64,000 nt of DNA from Escherichia coli. GTDB taxonomy: Bacteria > Pseudomonadota > Gammaproteobacteria > Enterobacterales > Enterobacteriaceae. The notes beneath the pieces are model-generated. The model searched no databases, had not been told where the DNA came from, and saw only the letters and a program-made list of their open reading frames with translations. The stretch is from the NCBI RefSeq assembly GCF_044324785.1, contig NZ_CP172127.1, one strand, 5' to 3'. A program made the position numbers and the translations under genes. Positions 12,357 to 12,594 of the stretch are shown here, one piece after another (the first letter of the stretch is position 1; each line of letters begins with the position of its first letter).

Positions 12357-12403
12357 AGCCCATCCTTTGTTATCAACTTGTTATTTGCGTTGATAAACAC
12401 AAA

Positions 12404-12418
12404 GCAAGGGGTGTGCCA
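12404..12418 (-). promoter_or_regulatory. sigma-54 (-24/-12) promoter of prpBCDE: TGGCAC-N5-TTGC
   Basis: Reverse complement of 12404..12418 reads TGGCACACCCCTTGC, a near-consensus RpoN promoter about 50 bp upstream of prpB; PrpR is a sigma-54 enhancer-binding protein. Confidence 0.65.
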
Positions 12419-12493
12419 CAATTGCCTTAATAAAATTAAATGTTTAATTTCAATTTGTTAGCAATATAGTCATGAAGTAATCCGCAAATATGC

Positions 12494-12551
12494 GTTTCAG
12501 TTAACGTTTCAGGCAATGTTTCACCGCGTTTCATTGCAACAATTATGAAAC
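12494..12551. promoter_or_regulatory. candidate PrpR enhancer: four phased GTTTCA hexamers plus palindrome GTTTCAT-N10-ATGAAAC
   Basis: GTTTCA at 12494, 12506, 12518, 12528 (10-12 bp phasing) and inverted repeat 12528..12551, located 80-150 bp upstream of the sigma-54 promoter between prpR and prpB. Confidence 0.4.
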
Positions 12552-12594
12552 AAGACTAAACCCAATATTCGGTTTCTTAACTTTGCGGTGCGCT

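Follow-up and report, generated by a model that had tools for sequence, protein, structure and literature searches.

The stretch of Escherichia coli DNA analysed here, 64,000 nt in length and hereafter called the window, carries prpB, prpC, prpD and prpE on its minus strand and the divergent gene prpR on its plus strand, all of them recognised by NCBIfam equivalog models at scores far over the cut-off. The first gene of prpBCDE, prpB (2-methylisocitrate lyase), occupies 11466..12356 on the minus strand (560.9 bits), and prpR, at 12595..14181 on the plus strand (1009.6 bits), encodes a sigma-54 enhancer-binding protein with the Pfam domains PrpR_N, Sigma54_activat (AAA+) and a Fis-type HTH_8. 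The intergenic spacer between the two genes spans 12357..12594 (238 bp). A query of 351 bp over the control region is present in 5,219 of 5,426 complete E. coli genomes and its annotation there is always prpB/prpR, which identifies 12357..12594 as the prpR–prpB spacer of an E. coli strain; the window is identical to K-12 across every element of the spacer discussed below. An initial reading made from the letters alone (the sequence-only reading) had assigned this region to the control of prpBCDE, and the flanking genes bear this out: the spacer serves as the shared control region of the divergent prpR and prpBCDE, and as such is already known. For comparison, 80 PrpB-encoding loci were fetched, of which 65 were usable with a divergent prpR, so that 66 spacers including that of the window were available; these loci share phylogeny and the counts given below overstate their independence.

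The minus strand of the spacer contains, at 12404..12418, the sigma-54 promoter of prpBCDE (TGGCACaccccTTGC), with TGGCAC as the -24 and TTGC as the -12 element. It is the single exact match to TGGCAC-N5-TTGC on both strands of the 64-kb window, while shuffled sequences gave a mean of 0.18 matches and at least one match in 16 out of 100 shuffles. The GG and GC doublets lie exactly 10 bp apart in the extended motif TGGCAC-N5-TTGCW (TGGCACaccccTTGCt, 12418..12403). Since the same pattern with one mismatch stands at chance level in the window (8 found, 6.1 expected), the argument from the motif rests on its position and its conservation. Indeed, every representative locus shown, from Escherichia through to Oxalobacteraceae, has the element with no mismatch or a single one, in most cases 54-73 nt ahead of the prpB ATG, and the cognate enhancer-binding protein is encoded nearby by the divergent prpR. 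In the window it is identical to the 17-mer GTGGCACACCCCTTGCT, the motif under the sigma-54 ChIP-seq peak OS01 (FAT 17) upstream of prpB in K-12 (PMC4591121). Similarly, a gSELEX peak of the sigma-54 holoenzyme covers the prpB upstream region (PMC8743547), the prpB promoter appears among the known sigma-54 promoters (PMC2831329), and in Salmonella, where prpBCDE is 45-fold sigma-54-dependent, the corresponding TGGCATAGCCTTTGC was detected by ChIP-chip (PMC3844500). The identity with the K-12 17-mer points to occupancy of 12404..12418 by the sigma-54 holoenzyme in the window as well, and the promoter proposed at this position in the sequence-only reading can be retained. At sigma-54 promoters the C of the GC element is -12; counted from the C of TTGC (12404), transcription of prpB is predicted to start at 12392 on the minus strand, with a tolerance of about 2 nt to either side, and every prpB-relative position in this paper is counted from this predicted +1. 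Table S4 of Cho et al. 2014 contains no start for prpB, and the supplements of Kim et al. 2012 contain no prp entries.

Upstream of the promoter, GTTTCA begins on the plus strand at 12494, 12506, 12518 and 12528, i.e. at spacings of 12, 12 and 10 bp, and the complement TGAAAC follows at 12546..12551, so that the last two copies form the split dyad GTTTCAT(12528-12534)-N10-ATGAAAC(12545-12551). The four hexamers at 10-12 bp spacing and the terminal palindrome had been described before, and correctly so. Of the 38 matches to GTTTCA/TGAAAC in the window, five crowd into 58 bp; in 2000 random placements no 60-bp stretch received more than three hexamers, and a Poisson scan puts the probability of such a cluster at about 5e-7. 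Numbered from prpR, the copies are H1 (12546..12551, -159..-154), H2 (12528..12533, -141..-136), H3 (12518..12523, -131..-126), H4 (12506..12511, -119..-114) and H5 (12494..12499, -107..-102; TGAAAC in prpB orientation). Between H1 and H2 a degenerate copy, GTTGCA in prpB orientation, is found at 12535..12540, 11 bp from H1 and 7 bp from H2, which matches the '>-11->-7-<' arrays of other taxa. The region from -102 to -159 of the predicted prpB start thus contains five exact half-site copies and one with a single mismatch, in the layout > 11 > 7 < 10 < 12 < 12 <.

The hexamer is the half-site of the PrpR enhancer consensus CGTTTCATGAAACG (CGTTTCA|TGAAACG), as given in Table 1 of PMC4987338, which attributes the consensus to Salmonella footprinting by Palacios and Escalante-Semerena 2004. 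When one prpR–prpB spacer from each of 15 genera is considered, GTTTCA/TGAAAC is the most frequent 6-mer, with 56 copies in total and at least two per genus. Over the 66 spacers the median is four copies, and 189 unique sites give the flank consensus (T/C)GTTTCA(T). The interpretation of the hexamers as a PrpR enhancer array therefore agrees both with the published half-site and with their clustering beside prpR in 15 of 15 genera. Their arrangement follows a simple rule: among 33 distinct architectures, the 53 pairs of same-orientation neighbours include 21 at 11-12 bp and 16 at 21-22 bp, and convergent neighbours are spaced by 6-7, 17-18 or 28-29 bp, which amounts to 11n for direct pairs and 6+11n for convergent pairs. 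Half-sites on such an 11-bp lattice share one face of the helix. The sequence-only reading had noted a phasing more regular than that of a single dyad; this holds as an 11-bp register and is general to the whole family.

Although the half-site is shared, the layout in Escherichia differs from that in Salmonella enterica, whose prp region (Horswill & Escalante-Semerena 1997; Palacios & Escalante-Semerena 2000, 2004) comprises the same divergent genes. Both have the sigma-54 -24/-12 promoter equally far from prpB, both possess GTTTCA half-sites and the distal block tGTTTCAtaaaTGTTGCAaTGAAAC, and according to the literature the dependence on PrpR, sigma-54 and IHF is a further likeness. The -24 element itself reads TGGCAC in the window and in K-12 and TGGCAT in Salmonella, Citrobacter and some E. 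coli, and the distance between array and promoter is 25 bp shorter in E. coli than in the Salmonella loci. In an alignment of 12 enteric sequences the block nearest prpR, tGTTTCAtaa(a/t)TGTTGCAaTGAAAC, is near-invariant; H2, H4 and the GTTGCA spacer are invariant in all 12 sequences, and a GTTGCA-containing spacer is also present in two loci (L057 and L079). Salmonella and most Citrobacter have a perfect GTTTCATGAAAC dyad 16 bp beyond this block, followed in most of them by a conserved TGACAC 12 bp later, and Escherichia aligns to this part of the Salmonella/Citrobacter spacer without gaps. The contiguous 14-bp dyad that defines the published consensus, which is present in S. arizonae and in the majority of Citrobacter loci, is absent from the spacer of the window and from every Escherichia locus examined. 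H4 corresponds to the right half of the dyad, the left half being lost in Escherichia (ATTGCC, ATTATC, AGTGTC) and in Kluyvera and carrying one mismatch in two C. amalonaticus sequences and in S. diarizonae. H5 aligns with a one-mismatch TGACAC in most Citrobacter, Kluyvera and Salmonella (TGGCAC in one Citrobacter), and H3, a new TGAAAC 10 bp after H2, is Escherichia-specific, with no counterpart in Citrobacter or Salmonella. As a result, Escherichia possesses four same-orientation repeats at 10, 12 and 12 bp in place of the contiguous CGTTTCATGAAACG dyad of Salmonella. Within Escherichia the hexamers, H5 included, are invariant except for H3 of E. albertii (TGAAAT), and the spacer between H3 and H4 varies. 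Judging from the alignment, the Escherichia array looks like a case of half-site turnover with preserved phase, of which we found no description in the accessible literature.

Alternatively, only the dyad nearest prpR might work in E. coli, and the three extra TGAAAC copies would be decaying remnants of the second dyad. Such decay would account for the loss of the left half in Escherichia and Kluyvera and for the imperfect H3 of E. albertii, and it would fit the output of the Salmonella prpR/PprpB pair, which is about 3-fold above that of the E. coli pair according to a review (PMC5566544). However, decay is difficult to reconcile with H4 and H5, which are invariant across Escherichia while the neighbouring spacers vary, nor does it explain that H5 was improved from TGACAC to the exact hexamer and H3 gained, both in helical register. 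Phased direct repeats are, moreover, seen again, independently, in Morganella, Providencia, Xenorhabdus and Oxalobacteraceae. We consider the single-dyad explanation unlikely and favour a phased array of which all copies are part; the layout specific to Escherichia may nevertheless be related to the 3-fold difference in output. The arrangement has parallels elsewhere. At sigma-54 promoters of the NtrC–glnAp2 type the activator also has an upstream array of sites, some 100-160 bp away from +1, an IHF bend is optional, and the activator sites likewise overlap the promoter of the activator gene, giving autoregulation. By contrast, the prp array has a different half-site sequence and consists of many single half-sites in direct 11-bp phase rather than of the textbook pair of dyads, and PrpR responds to the ligand 2-methylcitrate via PrpR_N instead of to phosphorylation.

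The array also contains a promoter. Table S4 of Cho et al. 2014 lists a transcription start at 347693(-), supported by 165 reads and assigned to prpR, and the 51-nt string upstream of it equals 12519..12569 of the window; this places the start of the prpR transcript at 12569 (plus strand) and gives it a 5' UTR of 26 nt. The -35-like hexamer TTGCAA of this promoter (12534..12539), which the degenerate half-site GTTGCA overlaps, falls between the arms of GTTTCAT-N10-ATGAAAC, so that H2 lies immediately upstream of the prpR -35 and H1 within the prpR promoter spacer (-23..-18). This position of the -35 between the dyad arms explains the invariance of the N10 segment. A scan of 12300..12650 for sigma-70 promoters and terminators returned nothing: the prpR promoter is too weak for such a scan and was located only through its published start. 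The description of the split palindrome is thereby refined, since it encloses the -35 of the prpR promoter in addition to being part of the array. PrpR bound to the array would sit on its own promoter, and autoregulation of prpR from this promoter appears probable from the geometry; RefSeq labels the K-12 PrpR as a "dual regulator".

Between the array and the sigma-54 promoter, a consensus scan revealed an A/T-rich block at 12434..12460 (-68..-42 of prpB) with three one-mismatch matches to the IHF core. The position of this block is conserved in enterics, and its sequence is degenerate with respect to the core WATCAANNNNTTR. IHF is needed for the expression of prpBCDE in Salmonella, as cited in a review (PMC5566544), and the A/T-rich block at -42..-68 fits this requirement as a candidate bend site. 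A CRP site has been reported to overlap the PrpR operator; our consensus scan of the enhancer found no CRP match with three or fewer core mismatches, the candidates there needing four, and the best CRP matches lie outside the enhancer, at 12386..12401 and 12587..12602.

Downstream of the sigma-54 promoter, the leader of prpBCDE contains the palindrome TTATCAAC-N11-GTTGATAA (12370..12396, minus strand) with perfect arms of 8 bp. Its location at the predicted 5' end of the transcript, which had been pointed out previously, is correct, given that the left arm contains the predicted +1 (12392). As a palindrome it is statistically unremarkable, because the window is rich in perfect palindromes with arms of this length (56 counts at about 24 places, against 13.7 in shuffles). 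Read on the opposite strand, however, its right arm and loop give TGTTATCAACTTGTTA, an exact ArcA core box TGTTA-N6-TGTTA (12368..12383) that occurs only once in the window (0.12 in shuffles). To evaluate such boxes we rebuilt the ArcA position weight matrix (PWM) from the 115 boxes in Table S3 of Park et al. 2013 (PMC3798270), whose published scores are reproduced within about 0.7 bit. At the 15-bit threshold of these authors only two sites are found among 127,966 positions of the window, and both lie in the prpR–prpB spacer: candidate box A, TTGTTTCATAATTGTTGC (12536..12553, minus strand, 16.2 bits), at -33..-16 of the prpR start and overlapping H1 and GTTGCA, and candidate box B, TTGTTATCAACTTGTTAT (12367..12384, plus strand, 16.1 bits), at +9..+26 of the predicted prpB start and abutting the Shine-Dalgarno sequence. 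As a positive control, the known betT box (36410..36427) comes out as the third-best match.

The leader box is widespread in the order. A score of at least 12 bits is reached at a similar position in 53 of 62 Enterobacterales loci, with every representative locus shown having the box on the bottom strand, and the leader of S. diarizonae scores 19.3 bits; the box is absent from Shimwellia. In four betaproteobacterial leaders the score is 4 bits or less, and the leader box is confined to ArcA-bearing lineages, the distribution of ArcA itself being taken from general knowledge. A set of 56 unique leaders has 89 copies of TGTTA on the bottom strand and 5 on the top strand, compared to 6.1 in shuffles, and 36 of 42 TGTTA pairs are 11, 22 or 31-33 nt apart. 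Such distances reflect the helical repeat of DNA and not a property of RNA. Leaders of Photorhabdus, Morganella and Xenorhabdus show layouts that resemble three to four ArcA repeats; in the window, inspection by eye found no TGTTA-like repeat in 11-bp register over the left palindrome arm that could serve as a third repeat.

The palindrome could instead act in the transcript, as a 5' stem-loop that guards the prpBCDE mRNA from 5'-end-dependent decay or tunes its translation, the ArcA-like repeats being incidental. For this speak the arms, both of which are invariant in Escherichia while the loop varies, and the position of the left arm, which begins within 2-4 nt of the predicted +1 and keeps a constant distance to TTGC; furthermore, an ArcA box leaves the left arm unexplained. 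An alignment of 22 leaders shows that Escherichia, Citrobacter and Kluyvera have kept the core 6 bp and that Salmonella has not; there the arm is absent and the TGTTA repeats nevertheless persist. The same alignment offers no convincing covariation in the stem: single-sided changes that break pairs occur in two loci (L017 and L070), and the sole double-sided change is one event in Salmonella, with neighbouring pairs lost. Folding is likewise weak, as the 61-nt leader is no more stable than shuffled sequences (z = -0.92), and the hairpin has a free energy of -6.2 kcal/mol in full, of only -2.0 kcal/mol when the transcript begins at the predicted +1, and does not form from 12391. A permissive Rfam search gave chance-level matches only, and spacings of 11, 22 and 32-33 between the repeats have no rationale in RNA. 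Most likely, then, the leader palindrome is not an RNA element, and a protective or regulatory stem-loop as its main function seems distinctly unlikely to us; a weak 5' hairpin may exist in addition.

The TAACAA repeats of the leader could also be sites on the mRNA, of the Hfq (ARN)n or the CsrA type, beside the Shine-Dalgarno sequence. The strict strand specificity of the motif (89 versus 5) would be expected of such a site, as would the promoter-distal copy that always abuts the Shine-Dalgarno sequence, and by inspection of the sequence AAUAACAAG can be read as three ARN triplets. This is improbable, however, with the great majority of the pairs spaced by the helical repeat of DNA and the 18-mer scoring like bona fide ChIP-bound ArcA boxes, and we found no RNA-binding data for the leader. 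Finally, we give very little credence to the leader element as an IHF site, although TATCAACTTGTTA (plus strand, 12371..12383) is the only perfect IHF core in the region and IHF is required for prpBCDE expression in Salmonella, because a bend downstream of the promoter cannot aid the contact between array and promoter, Salmonella has lost the diagnostic C of ATCAA (TATTAA, TAGTAA) while its ArcA score rises to 16.8-19.3 bits, and better-placed IHF-like matches exist at -42..-68.

The two ArcA boxes are not equally free of ambiguity. The position of box A over the prpR core promoter is the usual one for repression by ArcA, whose sites typically overlap core promoters. Its score is confounded by the likeness between ArcA repeats and PrpR half-sites phased at 11 bp: with the ArcA matrix, a betaproteobacterial PrpR array reaches 14.3 bits, and the score of box A may be due simply to PrpR half-sites at 11-bp spacing. 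Box B is free of this confounding. ArcA binding at the four phased GTTTCA repeats was considered as well and rejected, their spacing of 12, 12 and 10 bp giving PWM scores of about 7 bits or less. Expression data concern prpR in particular, which is up 2.9-fold in an arcA mutant and has a box of at least 15 bits predicted upstream (Park et al. 2013, PMC3798270). In the anaerobic condition of the same study no ArcA ChIP peak was reported at prpR/prpB, prpB is absent from the supplementary tables, and ArcA dependence was scored for prpR alone and not for prpBCDE (PMC3798270). The candidate boxes resemble the operators of that study in having two TGTTA repeats 11 bp apart centre to centre and, at 16 bits, in falling within the 9-21 bits of ChIP-bound boxes; box A, moreover, overlaps a core promoter like most ArcA repressor sites. 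They differ from known operators in that no ChIP peak is reported at the prp locus and in that box B lies downstream of a sigma-54 promoter and not over a sigma-70 promoter. The physiology of the pathway is of interest here, as the 2-methylcitrate cycle requires respiration. In anaerobic Salmonella, propionate induces prpR, while prpB and prpC need nitrate in addition, in a report that does not mention ArcA (PMC8800556). On the basis of its PWM score, its conservation, the helical spacing of its repeats and the nitrate physiology, we read the leader palindrome as mainly an ArcA operator at +9..+26, a proposal from sequence comparison to which we assign an even chance. The leader palindrome would accordingly be better explained as an ArcA box at the level of DNA than as a transcript hairpin, which is the second refinement of the earlier reading.

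Taken together, these elements suggest how the spacer may operate. The sigma-54 holoenzyme sits at TGGCAC-N5-TTGC (12418..12404) as a closed complex, in agreement with the published binding data. PrpR with bound 2-methylcitrate would bind upstream to the array at -102..-159, whose five exact GTTTCA copies and one GTTGCA would lie on one helix face in two modules about 22 bp apart. A bend of the IHF type in the A/T-rich block (-42..-68) would let the array reach the promoter, which ATP hydrolysis would then open for transcription from a +1 near 12392. The distal module encloses the weak promoter of prpR itself, and PrpR bound there would presumably autoregulate its own gene. In the absence of a respiratory electron acceptor, ArcA-P might shut both promoters, a step for and against which we see the balance as roughly equal. 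As an overall explanation of the spacer, i.e. a sigma-54 promoter, a phased PrpR array, a candidate IHF bend and a prpR promoter inside the enhancer, with the ArcA step at even odds, we hold this scheme to be very probable.

A more far-reaching joint reading, which we put forward tentatively and consider somewhat more likely to fail than to hold, combines a conserved redox gate of two ArcA operators with PrpR enhancers in which each subunit of a hexamer would have its own half-site, about six in all and phased at 11 bp, and with half-site turnover under preserved phase in Escherichia. If this were true, box A over the prpR core promoter would also compete with PrpR for the distal module of the enhancer, and ArcA-P would veto an enhancer-activated sigma-54 promoter from downstream (+9..+26). 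The ArcA gate would then explain why propionate induces prpB and prpC anaerobically only when nitrate is present.

The promoter, the activator and the IHF and CRP dependence of the prp region are textbook knowledge, and the region is in use as the pPro expression and biosensor system, so that a confirmation of the control region adds little by itself. The incremental findings are the 11-bp half-site lattice, the Escherichia-specific rearrangement, the geometry of a promoter within an enhancer and the pair of candidate ArcA boxes, and ArcA gating is a testable and modestly novel lead. For engineered sensors, the 11-bp register rule and the Escherichia layout may explain differences in strength and leakiness between Salmonella and E. 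coli parts, and, with the prpR promoter inside the enhancer, edits of the "operator" also alter the expression of prpR. For the enteric bacteria themselves, the two ArcA boxes would provide a concrete mechanism for the control of propionate catabolism by oxygen and electron acceptors, a control that matters for gut colonisation resistance against Salmonella.

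The -24 hexamer of the prpBCDE sigma-54 promoter (TGGCAC-N5-TTGC, 12418..12404, minus strand) is polymorphic among the PrpB-encoding loci compared, including L073 and L001, the variable base lying at window position 12413. TGGCAC is present in the window, in K-12 and in part of E. coli, while TGGCAT is found in the E. coli species representative, E. albertii, Kluyvera, and all loci of Citrobacter and Salmonella. The operon is sigma-54-dependent, yet it also appears as sigma-S-dependent in Table S7 of Cho 2014 (K-12 b0331-b0335): mutation of rpoS reduced stationary-phase prpB by a factor of about 16, with prpC, prpD and prpE likewise reduced.

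On the opposite strand, the prpR transcription start published in Cho 2014 maps onto the window at 12569 (+). The -35-like element of this promoter, TTGCAA (12534..12539), is located within the PrpR split dyad (GTTTCAT-N10-ATGAAAC, 12528..12551), and the promoter is weak enough to be missed by a simple sigma-70 scan. The ArcA matrix, rebuilt from the boxes of Park 2013 Table S3, received an unplanned positive control elsewhere in the window, at 36410..36427 (minus strand), where ATGTGTCTTAATTGTTAC scores 14.5 bits and matches exactly the betT ArcA box of that table.

A palindrome of the TGTCGGATG... type, which looks like a REP element, occurs in two copies in the window, at 607..636 and 6806..6835, the latter a short way past the stop codon of prpE (6841..8727, minus strand).

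In several Xenorhabdus and Photorhabdus loci, L026 and L035 among them, the prpB leader that follows the sigma-54 promoter contains a top-strand GTTTCA, a hexamer of the PrpR type that is exact or nearly so and is in register with the TGTTA repeats (ArcA-like), and two betaproteobacterial loci (L030 and L038) have TGAAAC shortly upstream of the start codon. In Providencia burhodogranariea (L066) the top -24/-12 match lies 204 nt upstream of prpB, giving a leader of 189 nt, compared with 40-90 nt in other loci.

In Xenorhabdus koppenhoeferi (L031), a PrpR-like match of 51% identity ends only ~7 bp from prpB, so that a normal intergenic spacer is lacking; this match may represent a paralogue or a rearrangement. 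Finally, no PrpR-type sigma-54 activator was found within 2.5 kb upstream of the prpB relatives in L023 and 14 betaproteobacterial loci (including L037, L040, L043-L045, L047-L049, L051, L055, L056, L076 from Janthinobacterium and L077 from Massilia), and in these lineages prpB is presumably under another regulator.
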